64,000 nucleotides of DNA. Source: Vezdaea acicularis. Its lineage: Eukaryota. Below, piece after piece: positions 48,953 through 64,000 of this stretch. Both the position numbers and the translations under genes were made by a program. Positions within the stretch are counted from its first letter, which is position 1, and every line of letters begins with the position of its first letter. The notes beneath the pieces were generated by a model. The model searched no databases. It saw nothing but the letters and a program-made list of their open reading frames with translations, and was not told the origin of the DNA. The stretch lies in assembly GCA_026025075.1 (NCBI GenBank), contig JAPEUI010000042.1:62001-126000 (forward strand), written 5' to 3'.

Positions 48953-49353
48953 GTCTGTTCGTTTCCGTACAAGATGTGGATATTCATAGCACAAGACAAA
49001 AATCAACCGAAAAGAGCCGTGATTCTTTATAAAAGAGAAACAAGGTCTAGCCTTTCCAAACGCCTTCAGCCTCGTCGCACCTGAAAAAATCGAGGATCCA
49101 TTGATAGGAGCCAATCAACCTCCATAAGCCCGTGTCGATGCGCCAAGGTGGCAAAGATATTGCCCCGTTTGTTAGTATCCATTTAAAGATCACACACGGT
49201 GCGTATTTCCTGCGTATAGCCTTGGGAGTCAAGGAGCGGAGTAGTGGTGCTGCGAACCACAGTTTTTCTTCTCAAAAGACAGATTGAGAGACCGGATCAG
49301 AGCATTTATCTGGGTCTCAATTGACATTTGCAACACCTTAAATCTCAATAATA

Positions 49354-51204
49354 ATGTCTACAGCTTGTCTCTGTCTAGCGCTTCTTCTTTTGTCCCCTGC
49401 CGCTCTTGCTAGCGACGCGGCCCGGCCCGAGGATCGTCCGGTCGGTTGGCAAGGGGCCAATCACCGGCGCGGCACTTGGGACATCATCATCAATTGTTTA
49501 ACCACGTTCATCGCCTGCACGTGGAGTGTTCAACATCTCAACGTTCCAGCAGAGGAAAACAGTCAAGAGAGTTCGGCAGAAGAACAAGGCGGACTCTTGG
49601 TTCATCTATGGCGGGCCTATTTGGCGAATACTTGGCGGCGTATGTGGCGACAACTCAAGTGGATGATTATCACGACACTGTTCCCTGAGCTAATCGTCAT
49701 TCATGCCTACCTCGAGCTCACTATGGCCCTCAAGGCTCTCTGGCGTATGAAAGGAAAGGGTAAGTCCGTTGAATTACCGTGGTGGTCCGACTGGCGATCT
49801 CTGTCATGGCCGCGAGGCTGCTTCTCCACAAGGCAGGAAGAGACAGAGGTTGAGAAGCAGCTTAACACAAAAGTACAGGCTGAAGTTGACAAGAAGTGGA
49901 CGTTGACTCATTGCTTCTTTGCCAACATGGGAGGCCTATACTACACCACAGAGAAAAGCCCGCCATCTATTTTGACAGCCGTGCAGCTTGCAGAAGAGTC
50001 GGAATTTGAGCAACCAGAGATTTCCGAGGACGAGATTAAGGACAAGAGCAAGCAAGATCTGTTTGCAAAAATTTTTGCAGTTTTCCAGATTCTGTGGCTT
50101 GTTCTGTCCATCATCGTCCGAAAATTTCGAGGATTAGCCTACTCACAACTTGAGTTAATCACATTGGTTTTCGCAGTGTGTGGCGTGTGCATTTACTTTC
50201 TATACTTCTATAAGCCTCAGAACGTGGAAAGAAGGATACGCATTGGACAAAAGAAAGAATCTCTAAAAGAAGCATCGTCCCGGGGTGGTCTCCAGCAGAC
50301 TAATTCAGAAAGAGATGCCTCTTCACAATCCCAGAAAATCAAGAAAACATACGATAGTCTCTGGGATGTGCTGATGAACAAATCACATTCTACGAGCGAT
50401 TCTAGTCATTCGCCTCTCATAAGGGTTCCTAATGACAACATTCCGCTTTCTAAGAGCCATGTTGCCCATTCAGCCGTGGTTTTCTTGGCCTTTGCGTCAG
50501 GTCTCTTCGGCGCCCTGCACGCTTTTGCTTGGGATTTCGAGTTTCCTTCTCGAGTAGAAAGATATCTTTGGCGAACGGCTACTTGCGTTGCCGCCGGCAG
50601 CCCCTTTGTTGGGCTGATTACGATACCGCTGGCGCAGCTGACACGCTCAGCCGGCGATCCCGAAATCTTCAAGGCAAAATGTCTGCGCTTAATGAGCGAG
50701 TATTCTTGGCATGTCTCTGACAAAGGCCCAATCAACGCCGCCTATGAGAAACTCGAGCATACTATCGTTTTTCCCGAGAATGACCAGCAGCAACAGTATG
50801 TCTACATATTCTCAGAGGGGCCAGAATCGAACGATGCTCAAGCAAGACAACTTGCAGGGAATCTGCTCGACTTCTTAGAGCTGAAAGAAGACTTTTTGGG
50901 AAAAAAACCACAAGAGCTGCACCACGATAAAGAATTGATTGGGCACTTCCAAACACTGGTTAGCATCATTGAAGGACATGAGTCTAAAAGACTTATCGAT
51001 CAGGCTAGGACAGACATTTTTCCACAGAAGAATGTGTTTCACAAAAGTTTTAATCAAGGTATTGTTGTTGTGACGACAATTCTCTACTGCCTAGCCCGTC
51101 TTTCAATCCTTGCTGTCGGATTCTCAAGCCTTCGCTCGATGCCAGATTCTGTATATGTGAGGACGCCTTGGACGACGTTCATTTCAGTGGCCGGATCAGG
51201 TTAG
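49354..51204 (+). CDS. Multipass membrane protein of an uncharacterised fungal family, with signal peptide
   Basis: Signal peptide and several hydrophobic helices. Recurrent family motifs RGTWDII..C..T...CTWSVQHLNVP, WM..T.LFPE, WTLTHCFFANMGG, EIKDKSKQD, KPQNV, FGALHAFAWDFEFPS..ER.LWR and LYCLARL...SLRSMP.SVY. Intronless. Confidence 0.85.
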   Translation: MSTACLCLALLLLSPAALASDAARPEDRPVGWQGANHRRGTWDIIINCLTTFIACTWSVQHLNVPAEENSQESSAEEQGGLLVHLWRAYLANTWRRMWRQLKWMIITTLFPELIVIHAYLELTMALKALWRMKGKGKSVELPWWSDWRSLSWPRGCFSTRQEETEVEKQLNTKVQAEVDKKWTLTHCFFANMGGLYYTTEKSPPSILTAVQLAEESEFEQPEISEDEIKDKSKQDLFAKIFAVFQILWLVLSIIVRKFRGLAYSQLELITLVFAVCGVCIYFLYFYKPQNVERRIRIGQKKESLKEASSRGGLQQTNSERDASSQSQKIKKTYDSLWDVLMNKSHSTSDSSHSPLIRVPNDNIPLSKSHVAHSAVVFLAFASGLFGALHAFAWDFEFPSRVERYLWRTATCVAAGSPFVGLITIPLAQLTRSAGDPEIFKAKCLRLMSEYSWHVSDKGPINAAYEKLEHTIVFPENDQQQQYVYIFSEGPESNDAQARQLAGNLLDFLELKEDFLGKKPQELHHDKELIGHFQTLVSIIEGHESKRLIDQARTDIFPQKNVFHKSFNQGIVVVTTILYCLARLSILAVGFSSLRSMPDSVYVRTPWTTFISVAGSG

Positions 51205-51953: not shown

Positions 51954-52731
51954 TAATAGCAATCACTTTCATCTTACCTGCAGTGCCTTCAGGGCTTCAC
52001 TACCTGTATGTTTGTTTCGTGACAACAAATGAATAAAATGTATTTTAATTTGCAAAAATGAACTCTATAGTTTTTTTACCACCTAACCTAACAATCTAGA
52101 GTGGAGGGTCGTAAGGATTGTACATTTGCAAAATTGTGTCTTTTATTATTATCAACTTACCTTCCCGTGATCTAGCTTGCAGAACGACTGCGTTTAACAA
52201 ATGCTAGGGATACATCATGTGATCACCGTTATATAAAAAAGCAGTGAAGCATTGTAAAATAGCTTCTTAGTATTCAATCGTATCAATCTTGAGAGATATT
52301 TATTGAATACTATCTACTATTTACTATTGCCTGCAACTTGCATGCAATACGCATGCAACCATTTAAAATGAAGCTAATCTGTTGCCAGTCTATACACACG
52401 CGCCTTACACTTATTGTCATAAATCTATCTTTCCTATAATTTAGCTTGCAGAACAATTGCGTTTAGCAAGCGTTGAGTATACATCTGTTGTGGAATAATA
52501 AGCAAGAGGCAGCGATGAGCCATAGGAGCAGGAAGCAAGTACGTAATATACCAACAGAAGCAGCCTCCTCATAGCGCCTGCCCATAAAAGCAGCGCTATA
52601 AGGCATGCGATTGCTCTGTAATAGACAGCGCTTATTGCGCTGTCCTGACTGGGCAGTTGTGACCTGCATATATAGCATATCTTTATAGATAGAAACAATG
52701 CAACTCTTTGATCATAAACTTATATCAGAAC

Positions 52732-53087
52732 TGTCAGGGCACGGGTGTCCTAACGCGTCAGGGCACTAGGCGTCCTGATATAGTATGGGGATCAAAGAGT
52801 TGTATTTCTTCTATCTAGGAGGATACGCTATATATACAAGTCGTCACGTGCCAGTCACGACTACCCGGTCAAGACAGCGCGGCAAGCGCTCTCTGTTGTA
52901 GGGCAGTTGCATACCGCATAGCGCTGCCCCTATAGGCAGGCGCTATACAAAGGCTGTTTATATTAGTATTGCTGCGTAGTTACTTCCTATCCCTGTATCC
53001 TGTCGCTACCCCCCTGCTCCCATATGCAGGTGTCCCACAAGAAGAACGCTTTGTCCTTAAAGTGTCTGGACATCTCGTGCCCTGACA
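52732..53087. mobile_element. Solo-LTR-like element, distant relative of LTR family B in reverse orientation
   Basis: Ends TGTCAGGGCAC...GTGCCCTGACA. The start resembles the reverse complement of the 54128/59567 LTR. No matching TSD found. Confidence 0.6.
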
Positions 53088-53105
53088 ATATTTTATGATC
53101 ATTAT

Positions 53106-53565
53106 TGTAAGAATGGACACAAGCTCTGCTCCTTTTCTGAAAGCATGGCAGGCATATAACGTCTGTGTCCTGCTTTTGGCAAGGAAACATACGCTCAACA
53201 AGGTATACACAAGCTACAATAGCTAGATATAATGATATGCGGCGGATATAATGATAATTGTTTAATTAAATAAGGCGATATAGAGATAATAGGGTCATAT
53301 AAATATAATAATAATTGCCCAGTTAAATGAGGCAATATAGAGACAATAGGAACATAAAAATATAATGAAATCTTTTAGGATCTAGCTATAGCATATGGTA
53401 GGAAATTATTTGATGACAAGCCATCAGAGTGGCATCATTGAGCATATATAGATAAGGAGTTTGATCAGCGTTGTCTCTAGACTAGACTATAAGCAGCAAT
53501 CATCTTATTTAATCCACCATAGCTCTGCTAGCAAGCCATCAAAAAAATCACTACAGCGTCTTACA
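53106..53565. mobile_element. Solo LTR (family D), 460 bp
   Basis: TGTAAG...CTTACA termini with a perfect 5-bp TSD ATTAT. Degenerate inverted copies at ~55820-56194 and 56543-56956. Confidence 0.8.
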
Positions 53566-53618
53566 ATTATCATATACGTATAAGAATAAGCACAATAGAT
53601 GCCTTTAAAGCTGAAAAT

Positions 53619-53996
53619 TGTAAGGACAAGCATGATAGCTGCCCTTGATTTTGAGAGCGTGGTAGGCCAGCGCCGTCTGCGGTCCGCCTACAGTGTTGCC
53701 GTGTGTTTAATAGGCTATAGAGGTAGGTGGGCCGCCAGCGGTAGCTAGCGGTGTCACAAGGCTATATAAATATAGCGATATAGCAATATAATGAATAGGC
53801 TGCGATTACATAAATAGATTCCAAGAACTAGCTATGAGTCAAGACTATTTAATGCCGCATCCCTAGCGGAATTGACTTGATATATATATAAAAGGCGCGC
53901 TGACTAAACGCCTCCTGAGCGCCACCGGCGTCCAAATAAGAACAGCTGTCTAGGGCACGCCGGCGCGCCCTAGGCGGATGCCATCGCGTTTTTATA
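53619..53996. mobile_element. Solo LTR (family A), 378 bp, transition-mutated
   Basis: Colinear with 57546-57923. Flanks AAAAT/AGAAC are compatible with a 5-bp TSD after G>A and C>T changes. Confidence 0.85.
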
Positions 53997-54127
53997 AGAA
54001 CATAGTAAGATAATCCACATTTGCATCCCGCCTGCAACGTCTCTGCATGTTTAATGGGCTATAGAAATAGATGGGCCGTCAACAATAGCTAGAATATCAT
54101 TAAGCAGTGTAGGAATATAAATATAAT

Positions 54128-54471
54128 TGTTATGGGACACGAGGTAGGGGGCGTCTAGGCAGGAGAAAGCATCGCCCGGACATAGGAGCTAAAGGGTAGT
54201 GGCATCTGGACGCAAGGATAAGGAGCGATCATATGGCGTCTACTAATAGGGGCAGCGCTTGTACGTCATGCGACTGCCCTAGGACAGACAGCGCCTGCCG
54301 CAACTAGCAGCGCTGTCTTGTCCAGGCAGCCACAACCGGATATCCTTTGCCCTATATATATAGATGAATCCCCTAGCTAGATGAATGGAACAACTTCTTC
54401 ATAAACACCGTTTACTGACAGGACGCCCCGTGCCCTGACGTATTGATGCCAGGACGCCCCGTGTCCTGACA
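54128..54471. mobile_element. Solo LTR (family B), 344 bp
   Basis: TGTTATGGGACAC...GTGTCCTGACA with a perfect TSD ATAAT. Near-identical to 59567-59908. Confidence 0.9.
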
Positions 54472-56542
54472 ATAATGATATAACAGATGATCTGCAGTTA
54501 TGTGGATGGATTCTAATAACTAGCTACAAGCCAAAATTATTTGATGTCAAAGTTTCTAACGGGCTTGATTTAGTATATATGTCAGTAATACGCTGAATAA
54601 ACGTCTTTTACGCGCCGTAGGTGCGTAAACAAAAACAGTCCTCTAAAACGTGCTAGCATTTGTCATTGTGTTCTTACATTATTTAAGTTAATTCTTAAAG
54701 ATTTATATCTATTTTTGTTATAAGACAAAAGTTAATATTTATCTAAGCCATTATATAATGACTGTACTAGCTCCTAGCTTCTATCCAGACTTTTGGGATA
54801 AATAAAGGGTAAAAGAACTAGCTTTGCTTCAGCTTTGCTTCTATTTTGCCTAGCTTCCTAGCACCTAACATAAAACCAAGTAGTTTTTATATCACTTGAC
54901 CTAGACGAGCGTAGCTATTAGAGCTACCACGTTCTTTAAGATAGCTCTTCAGTAATCAACTCATCTATTCATCTGAATAACTAGTAGAAAGGCATCCTCG
55001 CTCTACTTTGTCTAATTTTTGCCTTGTCTCATCTTGCCTCCTTGCCTTGCCCTAGCTACTATCACTGCAATTAATTTTTGCCAGCAAGTCTTTGAGCCCT
55101 TGAGAATTAGCCCATACGCCTACAGACTCTCGCCTCCTGATGAAACACTGGCCTGTCCTTACACATTAACCCTTGAATTAAACTAATTAATGTTTTAATC
55201 TGTTAAATAGTAGATAGATAAAAAAAATTTAACATTTATTTATTTTATTTATATATATGTGCAAAAAACTTTATAAAACAACATCAATACTCTTTATAAA
55301 TGTTTTTTTTTCCAAAATTTGACATGCATTCACTTATTTTCTGAAGTTTTTTGTAGAAAGCCACCAAAACTTTTGCTTAAGCTTATTGATGAAATTATGA
55401 CCGCTAAATAAGATAAACCTTTGCTTAGAACATAGCTTAAGAAGAGTAATGATCAGCCTCTTTTAAATATATTGCTAATGGCGCTACATTATGGATTTGT
55501 AATTAAATAGTTTTTTACACCCTGGCAGTATATATGATATCTCCTAACTCATATCATTATATTTATTTAAGATTATTATACTTATTATATTGTAAAAACA
55601 GAAGCGGCATATGTTTAGAGCGCGCTAACGCGTCTTAAACAGCTATTTTTGCTTGAAAACCAGCAGTTCTTAGGAAATGCTTAGTTAACACACCTTAGAT
55701 ATATATATTGAGTTAATTCCGCTAGGAATTTGGCATTGAATAGTTTTAACTTATATTTAATTATTAGAATTTACCTGTTAAACGTTGTTATAACTTTCTC
55801 AAAAGCTTACCGGCGGAGCTATGGCAAACTGAGCAAAATAAACGCCGCTTAAAGTTTAGCTTAAAGGAAGCGACTATTAAACCTTTTATCTATATATGTC
55901 CAATAGTGTTACCCCAATAGCTCATCATCAAGTAGTTTTATTTTTATATTATAGCTAGATTTTACAGAATTTTATAATAATTCTATTATATCCATATGAG
56001 CTCATTGTTTTCATATTACCCTATTCAATTGGGCAACTATTATTATATCCGCCGCATATCATTATATCCAGCTATTATAGCTTCATAGTCCGCGTACATT
56101 TTTCTAAATATATGCCTTCTTGCTGTAAACAGAACGCAGGTGTCATACATCTGCTACGCTCTTAATAAGGGCAGAATTTGTGTTTATCCTTACATTACCT
56201 ACATAATTGCAGATCATCTATTATATAGCTATAAATTATATTTTTATACTGCTCAATGATATTGTTAGCTATTGTTTGCGACTTATTGACTCTAATAATT
56301 CATTTAACATGCAATGACATTGCAAGCAGGATGCAAACAATAATTGACCTATCACGCTCTCAGAATCAAAAGCAGCTATTGTGTTCATTCTTATAATTCT
56401 GTTTAATTTACCCTTAAAAAGAAAGCCTGATAGCCGTTGGCAGACATTAAATAAAAATACGCAGAGGTATAGAAATATCAAAATTATCTTTTACAACAAA
56501 AATAATTAATAAAAATAATAGCATCATGAAAAACAAGCTAAT

Positions 56543-56956
56543 TATAAGACACTGCTGTGACTTTTTTGGTGGCCTGTCAGCGGAGTTATAACAGACTAAA
56601 CAAGATAAATGTTGCCTAAAACCTAGCTCAAAAGAAACAATAATCAAGCCTTTTACCTATATATGCCGATAACGCTATTCCAATAGCTTGTTATCAATTA
56701 GTCTTCTATCATATGCTATAGTTTGATTCTACAAAACTTCATAGCAATTCTATTATATCTACATGAGCTCATTGTCTTTATATTATCCTATTTAATTAAG
56801 CAATTATCATTATATCCGCGGCATATTATTATATCTAGCTACCATAACCTCATAGCTTGCATACGCCTTGCTGAGCATATACTTTTTTGCCGCAAGCAGA
56901 ACGCAGGCGTTGTACATCTGCCACGCTTTTAGAAAAAGAGCAGAACTTGTGCTTGT
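56543..56956. mobile_element. Degenerate family D LTR (inverted relative to 53106-53565), truncated by a further insertion
   Basis: Starts TATAAGACACTGCTGTGACTTTTTTGG, matching the reverse complement of the 53565 end, and shares the TATATCCGC.GCATAT.ATTATATC.AGCT block. Confidence 0.65.
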
Positions 56957-57001
56957 TGTAGAACAACGGGATAAGAGCAGGGAGTAGCAACAGGCTATAG
57001 A

Positions 57002-57379
57002 TGTAAGAACGCGGTGGCATCCGCCTAAGGCGCGTTGGCGTACCTTAGACGGCTGTTCTTGCTTAGATGCCGGTAGCGCTCAGGGGGTGCTTAGTTAACG
57101 CGCCCCTTATATATATATCGAGTTGGTCCCGCTAGGGATGCGGCATCAAATAGTCTTGACTCATAGTTAGTTCTTAGAATCTATTTATATAACCGTAGCC
57201 TATTCGTTATATCGTTATATCGCTATATCTATATAGCCCTGTAACACCGCTAGCTACCGCCGGTGGCCCGCCTATTCCTATAGCCTATTAAACACACAGT
57301 GACACCGCAGGCGGACCGCAGACAGCGCTGGTCTACTACGCTCGCAGAATTAGAGGCAGTTATTATGCTTGTTCCTACA
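57002..57379 (+). mobile_element. Solo LTR (family A), inverted relative to the adjacent 3' LTR
   Basis: TGTAAGAACGCG...GTTCCTACA, 378 bp, perfect TSD ATAGA. Diverged reverse complement of 57546-57923. Confidence 0.9.
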
Positions 57380-57545
57380 ATAGAGGCAAGGAACAGATAC
57401 GTTATATACTAACAGAAGCAGTCTCCTTATAGTGCTTGCCTATAAGAGCAACGTTATGAGATATGCGACTGCCTTGCAACAGATAACGCTTACCGCATTG
57501 TGTTGACCAGGCAATTGTGATCAAGCACATGATGACCTATATATA

Positions 57546-57923
57546 TGTAAGGACGGGCACGATAGCTGCCCCTGATTCTGAGAGCGTGGTAGGCCGGCGC
57601 CGTCTGCGGCCCGCCTGCGATGTCACTGCGTATTTAATAGGCTATGGGGGTAGGCGGGCCACCGGCGATAGCTAGCAATGTCACAGGGCTATATAGATAT
57701 AGCGGTATAGTGATATAATGAATAGATTGCGGTTATATGAATCAATTCCGAGAACTAGCTATAGATCAAGACTATTCGATGCCGCGTCCCTAGCGGACCC
57801 GACTCGATATATATATAAGGGGCGCGCTGACTAAGCGTCCTCTGAGCGCCGCCGGCGTCTAAGCAAGAGCAGCCGTCTAGGGCGCGCCGGCGCGCTCTAG
57901 GCGGATGCCGTCGCGTTCTTACA
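57546..57923 (-). repeat. 3' LTR (family A) of the chromovirus
   Basis: TG...CA ends with TGTAAG/CTTACA inverted termini, preceded by the PPT. Internal (AT)5 TATA-like tract at 57807-57816. Confidence 0.92.
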
Positions 57924-58449
57924 ACTGCCTCCCCCCATACGAAGGCTCGTCCTCGAGCCTTGTTCCGACGTCTTGCCCTTACCCTAAGCTAGGGTCCTTC
58001 TAGGAGACATTTCTCCGTCGTCGGCTCGTCGTCCGCGGCGCTCCACTCTCCTAATTGCAGCGACGAAGTGAGGTGAGATATAGAAGTGAGGTGAGGCGAC
58101 GTAGTGAGGTGAGTTGAGTGGCTATCCCTAGCTGATCTCACTGGACAAGGAGTTCTTCTCCTTCTAGTTATCGTTAGCTTACTCTTAGGAATAGATTCAT
58201 ACGCCGTAGGCGTCCTCGTTGGCCTGCGCCGTCTCTATAAGGCAAGATTCTTCCGCCTATTCAAACCATCCTTCCTACATATACGCTCCCCCACGTCTAC
58301 GACGTCCTTCTTCTTGCCTTTGGCCCCGTCCCTTGCCCCCCGCGTCTAGTATACGTGTATCTAATACACGTATACCGTCTTCTTCTCTCCTCTCGGCGTG
58401 GCAAGAGCTCGCTCTTGTCACTTCTCTTCTTCTCGCCGGCCTAGCAGCC

Positions 58450-60230
58450 ATGCCTGCGGACCATAACGTCTCTCGCCCCGCTGACGCTCAGCCGGCGCAT
58501 CCCTATCGGCCTTTAAAGGAGACTGCGAAGATACTGGACCAGGCTGCCTCTCTTGGTGCCGTCGAGGGAGGCAAGAAGCCCTCAAAGAAACGGGCTCCGT
58601 CGTCTGCGGCCGCCCCCTGGGCTCGTTCGAGCAACCATCCGTCTCTTCGCGTCTCCGCTGAGCCTTCTTCTCGTGGTCCTTCTCTTTCGGCTGGTCAAGA
58701 CACCGTGGTTCCCCCTGTCGTCGCTGCCTCTCCGTCGGCGGCTCTTGATCCTCCTACTCCCTCTGGTTTTGTTGTCCCGGCGTCCCCTGAGCTTGGCTTG
58801 AACTCTTTCGTGGACAGCGTAATGGATGAGCTGTATCCCGCCGACGAACAGTTGACGACTCTTGCTGCCCTGTCTCCCTCTGGTCCGTCTGCGTCTCTCC
58901 CTCAAGGGCAGACCAATGGCGATGATCTTGTCTCTACGGTTCAGCCTGGCTACTTCGACCCATCCTCGGATCTCTTGCGGCCTTGTTGTAAGCGCTGTGC
59001 GAAGCACTACTACGACGATCTGACTCAGATCTGCGCTCCGCCGGTGGGTTCTAGGTCTCGCTCCTGTACTCGCTGTGTGAATGGTCATAGACAATGCGAA
59101 GAGGTAAGATTCTATCTTCTTCTCCCCCAGAGTCCCGCTGACGGTCCTAGGTTCCCGACTTTCTTGTGCCCTGGCTGCGAGACATCCAGGTCCACGTCGA
59201 TACTATGAAGAAGGATCACAGCGTGGCAGAGAGGCTCTTAGGCTGTCTCATGAATCGTTTTGAGAAGGCCTTGCTTGAATATGAAATATTCAACAAGAGA
59301 AATCCCCTGGATCAATGTGTTGGGCTCCTTCGCGACATCCGGGACTTCGCCGCTCAAAGTCTTGCCTTGAAGCGGAAGAAGGTGAGTGCTCCCCCCCTTT
59401 GACCCGCTAAGTCTGCGCTGACGTCTCTTTCTTCTCGTATAGTTGGGCCTTGTGCCTTATCTGACGCCCCGTGAGCGGGCCATACGCCGTCACCTTACCA
59501 ACCTGACTTTGACTATTATCCCCCAGTTCCATGACATGAAGGGTGTCCTTCATGTAGGTCGCGCCCTGTTATGGGACACAAGGTAGGGGGCGTCTGGGCA
59601 GGAGGAAGCATCGCCCGGACATAGGGGCTAAAGGGTAGTGGCATCTGGACGCAAGGATAAGGAGCGATTGTATGGCGTCTACTAATAGGGGCAGCGCTTG
59701 TACGTCATGCGACTGCCCTAGGACGGACAGCGCCTGCCGCGACTAGCAGTGCTGTCTTGTCCAGGCAGTCATGACCGGATGCCCTTTGCCCTATATATAG
59801 ATGAATCCCCTAGCTAGATAAATAGAACAACTTCTTCATAAACACCGTTTACTGACAGGACGCCCCGTGCCCTGACGTATCGATGCCAGGACGCCCCGTG
59901 TCCTGACATGCCCCCCCTCGCAAGAAGAAGACTGTCGTCCGCGGCAAATGCTTGGAGCTTCCGGATGCCGAAGAAGATGATGGGCCCGCTGTCGCTCCTC
60001 CTGCGGTCAAGCGTCGCGCAAAAAAGGGTTCGGCGGTGCGTCCCGACACCTTCAGTCGCAAGACAGGTTCCGACATTCCCCATGCCCAGCTCCGGAAAGG
60101 TAAGGGTAAGGGTAAGGGTAAGGCCCCGCCAGCGCCACGCCGCCGTGCTGCCAGTCCCGCCTCTCCCGAGGTCAGCCATGGTTCCGCCGATGAGGATGAG
60201 GACAAGGCTGGGTGGGGGGATAAGGATTAG
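58450..60230 (+). pseudogene. Antisense, intron-containing accessory gene inside the retrotransposon (Zn2Cys6-like protein), disrupted by a solo LTR
   Basis: Exons 58450-59103, 59151-59381 and 59443-59566 + 59914-60230. Introns GTAAGA..GCTGAC..TAG and GTGAGT..GCTGAC..TAG. Reconstructs to 441 aa without stops. Confidence 0.78.
59567..59908. mobile_element. Solo LTR (family B), 342 bp, nested in the accessory gene
   Basis: Matches 54128-54471. TSD CGCCC/TGCCC with one C>T change. Confidence 0.9.
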
Positions 60231-60529
60231 GGGTTCGTGGAAGAGTCGCCCGCGGGTAGGTGGTGGGGGTTATAAATTGACACGGATCGACTTGATCGGG
60301 GGTGTGCTGGATGGATAGCGTTGCTGCTTTGGAGCTTTAGCTCATTCTCAAAAACATTGTTTTCTTCTGCTCTTCGGAGCTTTAGCTCCGCCTTAATACG
60401 ATTGCCTTTCCTCCTGCTCTTCTTTGTCTTGTCGCCAGTGACGTGTCGATGTCTTGCCTGAAGCTTCTTTGGGCTTGTTGTTGTCCCCTCTTCTTGGGGG
60501 ATCCCCGCCGTCGTACCTCCTGCGGTGTG

Positions 60530-63500
60530 TCACCGTTGACGTTGTCTTCTCCTCTCCCTTTCATACGCCTCTAACGCCTCCTTCGCGTTATCCAGGTTGG
60601 CTTTAGGCTCCCACGTGTCTTCCGCCGGTGGGTAGCCTTCCCATCGTACTAGGTATTGCTTATCCCTACCGGATCCTCGCTCAGCGAGGATCTTCTCTAC
60701 AACCCATTCTTCTTCCCCTTCCACTAGCTGGGCTGGCTGTCCCTGCGGTGCTCTGGCGGAGCCCTGGTAGGGCTCTAGGCAGGAGACGTGAAACACCGGG
60801 TGGATAGCCTTGTATGATGTTGGCAGCTTCAGTCGGTAGGCTTGCTTGCCTATGATTGCTTCTACCTCGAACGGCCCTAGCCAGCGGTGGTCCAGCTTCT
60901 TGTTGGGACGTCTTGTCTTTATGTTTCGTGCCAATGGTAGGACGAGTTGTCCTATAGAGAACTCTTGTGGCTTATGGCGAGCGTTGTAGTAGGTCGCCTG
61001 CGCCTCTTTGGCGGCCTTCCATTGGGCCGCCATCTCCCCCCTGATCTCTATGAGCCTCTCAATTCTCTCGCGTGCTGCCGGCGCCTCCCCCTTAGGGGCA
61101 TCGTCCTCGATGTCCTGTGGTGCCAGTGGTAGGTATCCCATCAGGGCCTTGAACGGCGTCTCGCCCGTGGCTGAGTGCTTACTTCTATGTAGGCAAACTC
61201 TGCTGTGGCTAGAAGCGATACCCAGTCATCCTGGTGGTAGTTGGCGTAACATTGCAAGTATTGCTCCAGCGTCTGGTTCTGTCTTTCCGTCTGGCCATCT
61301 GTCTGCGGATGGAATGCGGTGCTCAGCCGTCGTTTTACCTTCAGGTGGTAGTATAGGGTAGACCAGTATTGGCTGGTGAAGATGCTCCCTCTGTCCGTGA
61401 CGATTGACGCAGGTGTGCCGTAGGTTCTGATTACCTTTTCAAAGATAATGTCAGCAAGGCCTATCGCGTCAAGAGTCTTACAGATAGGGATATATTTAGC
61501 CATCTTTGTATAGCGATCGACTATCACAAGGATAGCGTCGTAAGCCCTTGGTCCCCCTTCGCCATCCGCTGCTTTGCCTGCGGGGGCTAGGCTGGGGGGC
61601 AGTCCCGTGATAAGATCCATGGTGATCGATTCCCATGGCTCACTGGGTGGGGGCAACGCTTGCATCTCCCCGTAGGGCTTATGCCGTGGTGCCTTGGTTC
61701 GTTGACATATGTCACATTTGCGGACATAGTCGGCGACCTCCTTTCTGAGGGTCTGCCAATAGTATTTTCGACTAAGTAGAGCCGTTGTCCTGGCGGCTCC
61801 AAAGTGCCCCGCGTACGGGTTGTCGTGGTAGACCTTCATGATCTCTGCCTTTAGGGCTGCGTCTTTTGGTACGTATACCTTACCCTCAAATCGCAGTAGT
61901 CCCCTGTTGTCTACACGCCACTTTTCAGGGTGCGATCCGGCTACGGTTTCCTCGCCATCTCTCAAGCTCTTCTTGATGTCTGCAGTCAGGGTGTCCCTGC
62001 GCTGCGTCTGTGATATCAGCTCGAGCAGGAAGGGGCTCGGGTCCCCATATGCCGTTTCAGTCCTGGCAGCAGTCACTGCCATAAACCGTGGTACGAGATG
62101 CGTCGGCGCACCAGTAACAGCCATCCGTATTCCCGGATGGCCTATCGAGATGGAGTCCCCGTCATGGGGGCTTCCACTTCTCTCCTCTGCGTCAGGGTTG
62201 CGGCCCTTCGGCGACTGGGGTGCGGCCCAGTCCTTAGTAGTGACTGCTACCGTGAGTTCTGATTGTCTTGGGTCAATGTCCATAGGGTCCCCCCTTAGGT
62301 GTTGCCTTTCATTATCCTGCTGATCCCGCAGGTTGTTCACAACACTCTCAGCAAGAGAGATTTCAAATTGGTACGTTGTACTGTCGGTGGTAGTCCCACG
62401 TACAATGCGTACGTAGGCCTCGATACCATCCTCGGCCTCAGCCAGATAGGCTAGTTTCCTTTGTAGGGTGGGTAGCATTGACGCTCCCAATTCCTTGTCT
62501 TCTACCCCGTAGTCGGGTCTTCTGCTAGGCCCACCGGCGGGGTTGTTCTTGCCCGGCCGATATTCAATTTCAAAGTCGTAGGCGGCCAGCATCTCGGCCC
62601 ACCGGCCCTGCCGGTTGTTGAGCGACTTCGTGCTCATGAAGTATTTCAGATTGTTGTGGTCCGTCAGGACCCTGATCGTATGGAGGCTACCTTCTAAGTA
62701 GTGTCTCCAATGCTTAAATGCCTTGACTATGGCAAGGAGTTTGGCGTCGTGCGTTTCGTAGCGAGTCTCTGCGTCCTCCATCTTTTTCGACCAGAAGGCG
62801 ACTGGATGCCAGTGGCGCTGCGTGCTATCCACTGGCGTGCCGTCCGCGGGCTAGGAGAGGATTTCCGCAATGGCAAAGCCGGAGGCGTCTGTTTCTACAA
62901 GGATCCTCTTCTTGGGGTCGAAGTGTTGTAGCACAGGGGCGGTAGTAAACGCCGTCTTCAGTTCTTCGAAGGACCGCAGCCCCTGAGCCGTCATTTCAAA
63001 AGGGCCGGTCTTCCTCCCGTTCTTGCTCCCCCGCAGCATCGTCGTGAGGCCGCTCGCGACCTTCGCATAGCCCTTCACAAATCGTCTGTAGAAGTTGGCA
63101 AAGCCTAGGAAAACCTGCAGCTCCCTGAAGCTCTTAGGAACGGGCCAGCTCCGGATAGACTCGACTCGGTCCTCTTCCATAGAGACGCCCGTAGGTGATA
63201 CGACGTATCCCAGGAAGCCAACCTTAGTCGTATGGAACTCGCACTTGGACAGCTTTGCAAATAAACTATATTTGCGCAGCCTGTAGAGCACGCTGGCGAC
63301 GTCCTGGTGGTGCTGCTGGAGGTCGGTCGAATACACCAGTATATTGTCCATATAGACGACACAGCAGACGTCCAGAAGGTCCGACAGCGCCTCATTGATG
63401 TACGCTTGGAATGTCGCTGGAACATTCGCTAGGCCGAAGGGCATGACCTGGTATTCCCAGTATTCATACCGTGTGCGGAACGCCGTCTTCCACTCGTCTC

Positions 63501-64000
63501 CCTCCTTGATCCGTATCCTATGGTATGCGTCTCGGAGGTCCAGTTTGGTGAATATCGTCGCCCCCGACAATCGGTCCAGGGTTTCGCTGATAAGGGGTAA
63601 GGGGTGTTGGTTTTTTACCGTCATCTTGTTCAACCTCCTGTAGTCGACGCAGAGCCGCAGGCTACCGTCCTTCTTTGAGACAAAGAGTATTGGAGCTCCA
63701 GCAGGGCTAGTGGATCTCCTAATCCACCCCTTTGCCTCTGCGTCCTGGAGGTAATCCCGTAGGACTTCTAGTTTCCTCTCGGAGAGGTTGTAGACGGGCA
63801 TCCATGGTGGATCCCTCTGCGTTACGATGGCGTGTTTTTGGGCGTGGTGGAGGGGCAGCTCACCAGCCGCCCGCTCAGAGAAGACGTCTTCGTATTCTTC
63901 ATACTCTTTGGGGACTCCTTCCCCTGCTTTCACGTTTCTCAGGCGCGCCCCCTGGGGGTTTGTCCATTCCCTCTGAAAGACAGCGTACGCTCGATCTCCT
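60530..64000 (-). pseudogene. pol: pol polyprotein (RT, RNase H, integrase, chromodomain), inactivated
   Basis: RT LRLCVDYR, KLDLRDAY and YMDN (catalytic YxDD mutated). RNase H ETDASG followed by a TAG stop at 62851-62853. Integrase HHCC and GQTERQN with a 1-nt frameshift near 61187, GPF motif, and chromodomain YLVRWEGYPPAEDTWEP. Confidence 0.95.

Follow-up and report, generated by a model that had tools for sequence, protein, structure and literature searches.

An antisense gene with two introns between pol and the 3' long terminal repeat of a Vezdaea acicularis chromovirus, probably an accessory gene of a Vezdaea-restricted family

How can a gene with two introns lie inside a retrotransposon, and what is it to the element that carries it? 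The question is raised by positions 58450-60230 (plus strand) of a 64,000-nt stretch of DNA from the lichen-forming fungus Vezdaea acicularis (assembly GCA_026025075.1, contig JAPEUI010000042.1, forward-strand positions 62,001 to 126,000; hereafter the window, with positions counted from its first letter). There, a first-pass annotation made from the sequence had read a gene for a Zn2Cys6-like protein in the interval between pol and the 3' long terminal repeat (LTR) of a chromovirus, on the strand opposite to gag-pol. We find that this antisense gene is best regarded as a lineage-restricted addition to a known class of antisense extra open reading frames (ORFs), aORF-3R, and we put at roughly 60% the reading in which it is an accessory gene, of that class, belonging to a Vezdaea-restricted chromovirus family.

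The carrier element lies on the minus strand. Its pol, with reverse transcriptase, RNase H, integrase, SH3 and chromodomain regions (60530-63999, minus strand, extending past the window edge), was delimited by Pfam matches to RVT_1 (E-value 2.5e-35), RT_RNaseH (1.5e-26), Integrase_H2C2 (5.7e-21), SH3_Tf2-1 (2.1e-18) and Chromo (1.6e-17), the pol domains exceeding the curated Pfam cut-offs with the exception of rve (27.2 vs 32.6 bits). Because pol carries reverse transcriptase, RNase H, integrase and Chromo domains, the element is a Ty3/gypsy chromovirus. Its 3' LTR (LTR-A, 378 bp, TGTAAG...CTTACA in element sense; 57546-57923, minus strand) was defined by alignment with two more copies in the window, at 53619-53997 and 56999-57379 (inverted), with a mean column identity of 86%. 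LTR-A is a genuine LTR, since the solo copy at 56999-57379 is bordered by a perfect ATAGA target duplication; in addition, contigs from other sequencing runs (see below) that have differing flanks terminate at 57546 and 57923. The polypurine tract, GGGGGGAGGCAGT in element sense (57924-57936, minus strand), is apparent in the sequence itself, abuts the 3' LTR and marks the junction between the internal region and that LTR. Since the tract and a genuine LTR-A follow directly downstream, the ~2.6 kb that separate pol from the 3' LTR belong to the interior of the element. The pol domains, the polypurine tract, LTR-A and their coordinates thus bear out the proposal of a gene lying antisense within a chromovirus. 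Pfam recognised no family in five minus-strand ORFs of the spacer, and there is therefore no sign of an extra gene on the sense strand. Note that the solo LTR-A at 56999-57379 is only 166 nt from the 3' LTR, the pair forming a 381-nt inverted repeat that is 83% complementary.

The antisense gene as a whole (58450-60230, plus strand) is situated between the pol stop codon (60530-60532, minus strand) and the polypurine tract and 3' LTR; the stops of the two genes converge and are separated by a gap of 299 nt (60231-60529). Exon 1 (58450-59103, plus strand, 218 codons) encodes a conserved N-terminal motif, a Ser/Pro-rich region and a cluster of cysteines (58987-59097), and, with the putative donor adopted here, ends in ...CEE/GTAAGA. 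It is followed by intron 1 (59104-59150, 47 nt, GTAAGA...GCTGAC...TAG), by exon 2 (59151-59381, 77 codons), which encodes a predicted helical core with the motif NRFExAL...FNK, and by intron 2 (59382-59442, 61 nt, GTGAGT...GCTGAC...TAG). Both introns were recognised by their sequence signals, and the position of the second is conserved in a paralogue, P0006, described below. Exon 3 is present in two parts, the first of which (59443-59566, to ...HVGRAP) forms a block conserved with P0006, while the second (59914-60230) encodes a basic, Lys/Arg-rich tail with a (GK)n repeat and an acidic end, up to the stop codon at 60228-60230. When the LTR that separates the two parts is removed together with one copy of its duplication, the gene reads ...GRAPPRKKKTVV... 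and measures 1326 nt, i.e. 441 codons and a stop. The first-pass annotation had therefore correctly placed the ATG at 58450, the two canonical fungal introns with their GCTGAC and TAG signals, and a 441-codon frame ending at 60230. The open frame is longer than chance allows: the longest stop-to-stop frame in the spacer spans 332 codons and contains exon 1, and none of 1000 dinucleotide-preserving shuffles of the spacer matched it (150 +/- 32 codons, maximum 301).

Upstream of the gene, a region that we presume to hold its promoter and 5' untranslated region (57937-58449, plus strand) contains an 18-nt unit, GCGACGAAGTGAGGTGAG, repeated three times in tandem at 58060-58113, ~340-390 nt upstream of the ATG and ~130 nt from the polypurine tract. 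This repeat could serve the antisense gene as part of its promoter, or the retrotransposon RNA as a cis element.

To which proteins is the gene product related? With exon 1 as the query, a word-indexed search through 5.8 billion proteins matched three, P0001, P0002 and P0003. P0002 is the window's own deposited model, a hypothetical protein of the Vezdaea acicularis metagenome-assembled genome (MAG) at NCBI, and is 100% identical over the shared exons. P0003 (KAI9862024.1, 419 residues) is encoded elsewhere in this MAG, on a separate contig, with 384 of 419 aligned residues identical, and P0001, from an ENA contig, is an unspliced read-through of exon 1. As judged from these proteins, there are at least three near-identical copies (P0001, P0002 and P0003), of which P0003 and P0001 are candidates for element-borne ones. 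The deposited models differ from ours at one splice site: in both P0002 and P0003, intron 1 begins at an in-frame donor further upstream, so that the exon ends in ...APP at 59043, which removes 20 residues, three cysteines among them. In addition, the P0002 model treats the LTR insert in exon 3 as part of an intron.

This insert belongs to a second LTR family (LTR-B). It is a solo copy of 342 bp (TGTTATGG...CCTGACA; 59567-59908), flanked by duplications at 59562-59566 and 59909-59913, and is 94-97% identical to a sister copy at 54128-54471. A solo LTR had been proposed to split exon 3, and it does; its target duplication is nevertheless imperfect (CGCCC/TGCCC), the sister copy having a perfect ATAAT. 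In the unedited sequence, the frame stops 8 codons inside the insert. That the two parts of exon 3 were once contiguous is apparent from other copies. Indeed, P0003 reads ...HVGRAPPRKKKTVV... unbroken, which is the reconstructed junction of exon 3. We also placed Logan contigs from four DNA runs of two studies (X1, X2, X3 and X5) on 57400-61400 at a likeness of at least 85%, and contigs of three of the four runs (X1, X3 and X5) have the empty site, joining 59562 to 59910 and skipping 347 nt, i.e. 342 + 5. The exon 3 junction rebuilt in the first-pass annotation is thus found in other copies.

The pol of the window copy is also damaged, being interrupted by an in-frame stop at 62848-62850 and by a frameshift between the ORFs 61141-62850 and 60530-61225. 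Since a solo LTR splits exon 3 and pol has both a stop and a frameshift, the copy of the antisense gene in the window is dead. In the contigs of each of the four runs, one additional T is present behind 61187, within the overlap where the pol frame changes, which suggests that the frameshift is private to the window copy and that the other copies are probably open there.

The same contigs preserve the arrangement of the element. In each of the four runs they tile LTR-A, the gene and pol in this order, at roughly 94-97% identity. LTR-A is bridged to the upstream region in X2 (record 9, 57737-58208) and X3 (record 16, 57916-58351), and exon 3 is linked to pol in X1 (record 5, to 60482), X2 (record 13, 60024-60834) and X3 (record 20, 60251-60803). 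An X2 contig (58573-59519) spans both introns gap-free with 39 differences; the contigs of X1 and X2 give no cover at about 58338-58471. A GGTAAG repeat at 60099 is shortened by an in-frame 6-nt deletion in X1, X2 and X5, and P0003 has two residues fewer at the same place. Among the indels listed for 57924-60529, this in-frame deletion is joined in the coding sequence by one single-nucleotide deletion in a minority-depth X5 contig, and the non-coding flanks of the spacer have four that are not multiples of 3.

More distant relatives were sought with P0003 by phmmer among 1.84 billion representative proteins (E up to 0.001), which gave four matches, P0002, P0001, P0004 and P0005. The last, a repeat protein, was judged a false positive. 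P0004 clustered with P0006 (KAI9855773.1), a hypothetical protein of 508 residues from a third contig of the Vezdaea acicularis MAG. A profile of all five relatives found no further members in a word-indexed profile search, and the five all come from Vezdaea acicularis or from metagenome contigs. When the family alignment was compared with metagenome contigs, 133 pattern matches were obtained, none of which was confirmed.

P0003 and P0006 are 31% identical (BLASTP E 1e-35), and most of the identity falls into blocks: MPADRxVSRP...AHPYRPSKE... within the first ~60 residues, NRFExAL...FNK in the helical core and, in exon 3, TxRER..HL..IPxFHD..GVLHVGRAP. Part of the tail is shared as well. Within the first block and beyond (tblastn on 58450-58821), identity amounts to 91% for P0003 and 41.5% for P0006. 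P0006 and P0004 are without about 100 residues that include the whole Cys cluster; because the P0004 ORF is continuous across the place of the Cys cluster and intron 1, the P0004/P0006 subfamily has neither. Intron 2 is another matter, as the P0006 model splices it at the aligned position, and the unspliced ORF of P0004 runs on into 'VS...' and soon stops; the window read-through does likewise ('VSAPPL', then a stop). This blockwise conservation, with a frame kept over a conserved intron, is our main argument that the protein is probably made and selected. At the other extreme, P0006 residues ~330-500 consist of about six tandem Ser-rich units of ~23 residues (...SSGEESSVDDHSSGTYCSYTA...), as opposed to the Lys/Arg-rich tail of the window subfamily, and the C-terminus of the family evolves fast.

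Is such a gene known from other elements? The class aORF-3R, as a review of additional ORFs defines it, comprises ORFs that lie antisense in the interval from pol to the 3' LTR (PMC7264820; statements from the literature are taken here from excerpts of the papers cited), and the window gene has both this position and this orientation. The members named include maize Grande, rice RIRE2, Silene Retand and Phaseolus PvRetro13 ORF2 (PMC7264820, PMC11963269), as well as Boty of Botrytis cinerea and Sclerotinia sclerotiorum (PMC7264820). The first-pass annotation knew of no characterised equivalent in fungal chromoviruses; Boty is such an equivalent. Boty-like elements are described as having a gag-pol with a CHROMO domain together with brtn (PMC4227169, PMC8365987), and brtn lies antisense between pol and the 3' LTR in Botrytis cinerea (Zhao et al. 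2011, Virology 417:248, cited in PMC7264820, PMC8365987, PMC4227169, PMC5987419); a BRTN-like transcript has been reported in Monilinia (PMC5987419). Boty and the window element thus share a fungal host, a chromodomain gag-pol and an antisense gene between pol and the 3' LTR. However, the phmmer search with P0003 returned relatives from Vezdaea and metagenomes only, which speaks against close homology to BRTN, a protein not compared directly.

The plant aORF-3R genes resemble the window gene in their position between pol and the 3' LTR, in their antisense orientation and in the lack of clear database similarity, but they have plant hosts and encode unrelated proteins, and the window gene is without a Pfam Transposase_28 or SMC match. 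In Retand, which belongs to a non-chromovirus lineage, antisense ORFs are nearly always present, most with a TRP28 domain (PMC11963269). As to function, the excerpted 2020 review gives that of aORF-3R proteins as undetermined and mentions a regulatory role or the formation of double-stranded RNA (dsRNA) as proposals (PMC7264820). The word 'intron' is found 0 times in the main text of PMC7264820 and PMC11963269, where spliced antisense aORFs are thus undiscussed, and our literature search found no paper combining 'Vezdaea' with 'transposable'.

If the antisense gene is an accessory gene of the chromovirus, as we propose, it would be transcribed from a promoter of its own in the ~0.5 kb next to the polypurine tract and 3' LTR, or from antisense activity of the LTR. 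Because the two introns are antisense to the element's genomic RNA, they would never be spliced from it and would survive retrotransposition, which would answer the first part of our question. The product is predicted to be mostly disordered, with a conserved N-terminal motif, a helical core of ~100 residues and a Lys/Arg-rich tail.

Several observations weigh against this proposal. The 5' LTR lies beyond the window edge, as do the primer binding site and the element's own target duplication. Neither the phmmer search of 1.84 billion representatives nor the word-indexed search with the profile found a homologue in any other organism, and long-term retention is visible within one species only. 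Nor did we find the gene in related elements. A pol search (proteins of 312-994 residues) gave 218 proteins at E up to 1e-60, of which 120 were listed, and among these listed matches the nearest are 53-57% identical. None of the listed matches lies on a contig of 4872, 210539, 86083 or 128820 nt, the lengths looked for in order to place pol beside P0001, P0003 and P0006. From metagenome contigs we took the best 80 of 463 confirmed chromovirus loci (37-55% identity, 704 kb), in which an LTR pair was recognised in 21 of 80 cases, with a pol-to-LTR spacer of at least 800 nt in 11 of the 21; the larger ORFs in these spacers are mostly on the sense strand. The family profile found nothing in the best 80 of 463 (best E 0.066); in a control, it recovered the three exon frames of the window at 4e-137, 3e-49 and 9e-19.

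Selection among close copies is a further point on this side. The first-pass annotation had suggested that other copies be examined for conservation, with dN/dS < 1. Other copies do exist, but they give no selection signal of the dN/dS type: the exonic substitutions listed, 11 in number, comprise 4 synonymous and 7 nonsynonymous ones, with 30% synonymous expected (p = 0.44), and no purifying selection is detectable in this set. Neutral-looking substitutions are expected if copies decay after insertion; they give no positive support for selection. Finally, a nuclear or DNA-binding activity of the product stands without a domain, fold or structure match, and the Cys cluster, missing from the paralogue, is specific to one subfamily and not a core feature of the protein.

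Separately, a common sense-strand ORF (...STTATV.TNEGWTF...) directly follows the pol stop in four of the related loci (L041 11895-12815, L062 11894-12334, L067 11907-12314 and L052 10197-10586). It is a different, sense-oriented extra ORF, or an extension of pol, in relatives of the element.

Other explanations of the locus have to be set against these data. A host gene, or a young orphan gene, may have been captured once by transduction or recombination and persist as a passenger that plays no part in the life cycle of the element, P0006 being the host original. Such an origin would agree with the different architecture of P0006, which has no Cys cluster and ends in a long Ser-rich repeat tail, with the neutral appearance of the substitutions between close copies, and with the statement in the excerpted review that transduced aORFs occur in one or few copies (PMC7264820). 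We nevertheless consider it unlikely. The gene is present in at least three copies, and contigs of four runs keep it between LTR and pol; the absence of homologues outside the species, among the 1.84 billion representatives and in the profile search, gives no sign of an ordinary conserved host family; and P0006 itself has a near-identical relative, P0004, in another source, a pattern that the element-borne subfamily shows as well. It is also conceivable that the antisense transcription itself is what matters, either through dsRNA and small interfering RNA formed with the convergent pol transcript or through interference, or that the open frame is incidental or decaying. With convergent stops only 299 nt apart, the 3' ends of the two transcripts probably overlap, and dsRNA-mediated regulation has been raised as a possible function in the review excerpts (PMC7264820); the largely disordered state predicted for the protein (mean pLDDT, i.e. 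predicted local distance difference test score, of 38) and the lack of detectable selection among close copies point in the same direction. An incidental frame would, however, hardly account for protein blocks conserved at 31% identity (E 1e-35), for a frame kept over a conserved intron in both subfamilies, for a 332-codon frame seen in 0 of 1000 shuffles, or for the fact that the sole well-supported coding indel, among those listed, is in-frame. We therefore regard an RNA-level effect or a fortuitous frame as improbable.

The remaining explanation, that of the first-pass annotation, is a Gal4-type Zn2Cys6 factor (PF00172) that transactivates the LTR or blocks silencing. The cysteine spacing on which it was based, C-x2-C-x11-C-x10-C-x2-C-x6-C, is exact (residues 180-216 of the reconstructed protein). 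Like the Gal4-type proteins, this fungal protein has six cysteines, with two CxxC pairs and basic residues nearby, and the second half of the cluster, C-x2-C-x6-C, fits the Gal4-type spacing; moreover, the basic stretches PRKKK, KRRAKK, a GK repeat and PRRR, picked out by eye, could be nuclear localisation signals. However, the first loop comprises 11 residues instead of 6, contrary to the spacing rule C-x2-C-x6-C-x5-12-C-x2-C-x6-8-C, and the Pfam profile failed too. Indeed, Pfam gave no family for any exon, exon 1 included, at E up to 1, nor for the 43-residue Cys segment and P0003 at E up to 10 (0 families, Zn_clus included), and P0006 had a single, sub-threshold and unrelated match. In the PDB, a sequence search gave one non-significant match, to a FYVE-RING protein (E 2.4), and a search by family profile gave no match. 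In the ESM Atlas, the Cys segment scored at most 0.83 with no Zn_clus cluster, DUF3716 being annotated on 28% of one cluster (a lead only), and the helical core had no usable match. The AlphaFold test suggested for the cluster lent no support to the fold: AlphaFold2 models of the Cys segment alone (mean pLDDT 50.4) and of P0003 with a 5-row alignment (mean pLDDT 38.0) were both too poor for a fold search, and the low-confidence model of P0003 places helices only at residues 201-298. Finally, the cluster is absent from P0006 and P0004, and the deposited models lose half of it by splicing. The Gal4-type assignment, together with the label 'Zn2Cys6-like', thus finds no support, and we consider a factor of this type very unlikely. 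The two CxxC pairs may still bind zinc.

What, then, would an accessory protein do for the chromovirus? Our best guess, a doubtful one and made by analogy only, is that the product might act in trans, in the nucleus, to regulate the expression or silencing of its own element. HBZ of human T-cell leukaemia virus type 1 (HTLV-1) is a bZIP protein, and its mRNA, which is spliced, initiates in the 3' LTR. Like HBZ and APH-2 of HTLV-2, retroviral antisense proteins described as nuclear and regulatory in excerpts of PMC11963269, the window protein is encoded on the antisense strand of a reverse-transcribing element, near its 3' end, and among aORF-3R proteins Grande GENE23 is given as nuclear in the corresponding excerpts of PMC7264820. 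The likeness to HBZ and APH-2 is one of working principle only: there is no homology, and the window protein has no bZIP or other Pfam domain. VANC is an anti-silencing protein of Arabidopsis VANDAL transposons, which are plant DNA transposons. In the analogy drawn by the first-pass annotation, the window protein would resemble VANC as a transposon-encoded accessory protein that acts on the chromatin of its own element, although VANC comes from a plant DNA transposon. A more specific version is decidedly unlikely: here the spliced antisense gene would encode a zinc-binding, largely disordered nuclear regulator that acts on LTR-A chromatin to activate or shield the element, and that evolved de novo inside the element and is diversifying with its subfamilies. 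If this were true, the protein would play in a fungus a part comparable to that of HTLV HBZ or plant VANC.

The surroundings of the element deserve a brief description. The region at 52000-57500 of the window is AT-rich (GC content 0.36-0.42 vs 0.56 in the element) and crowded with LTR copies in decay. At 53619-53997 and 56999-57379, LTR-A has only 83% identity with the element LTR, and the differences are apparently mainly transitions. The whole region looks like a transposon graveyard affected by repeat-induced point mutation beside an unmutated element. Some 2 kb from this AT-rich repeat zone, a 620-codon open frame (49342-51204, plus strand) encodes what, by eye, resembles a multi-pass membrane protein of the host.

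As it stands, the antisense gene encodes an orphan hypothetical protein that had already been deposited, and we expect Vezdaea acicularis to be hard to work with experimentally. The finding would gain in importance if a regulatory action of the protein on the element were demonstrated. Its two diverged subfamilies show which parts of the protein are kept, and its spliceosomal introns, whose persistence is possible only in antisense orientation to the genomic RNA, provide a built-in marker of the transcribed strand. The window gene extends aORF-3R to a fungal lineage outside the Sclerotiniaceae, and each new unrelated aORF attests to the repeated evolution or capture, by such elements, of a convergent gene in this position.

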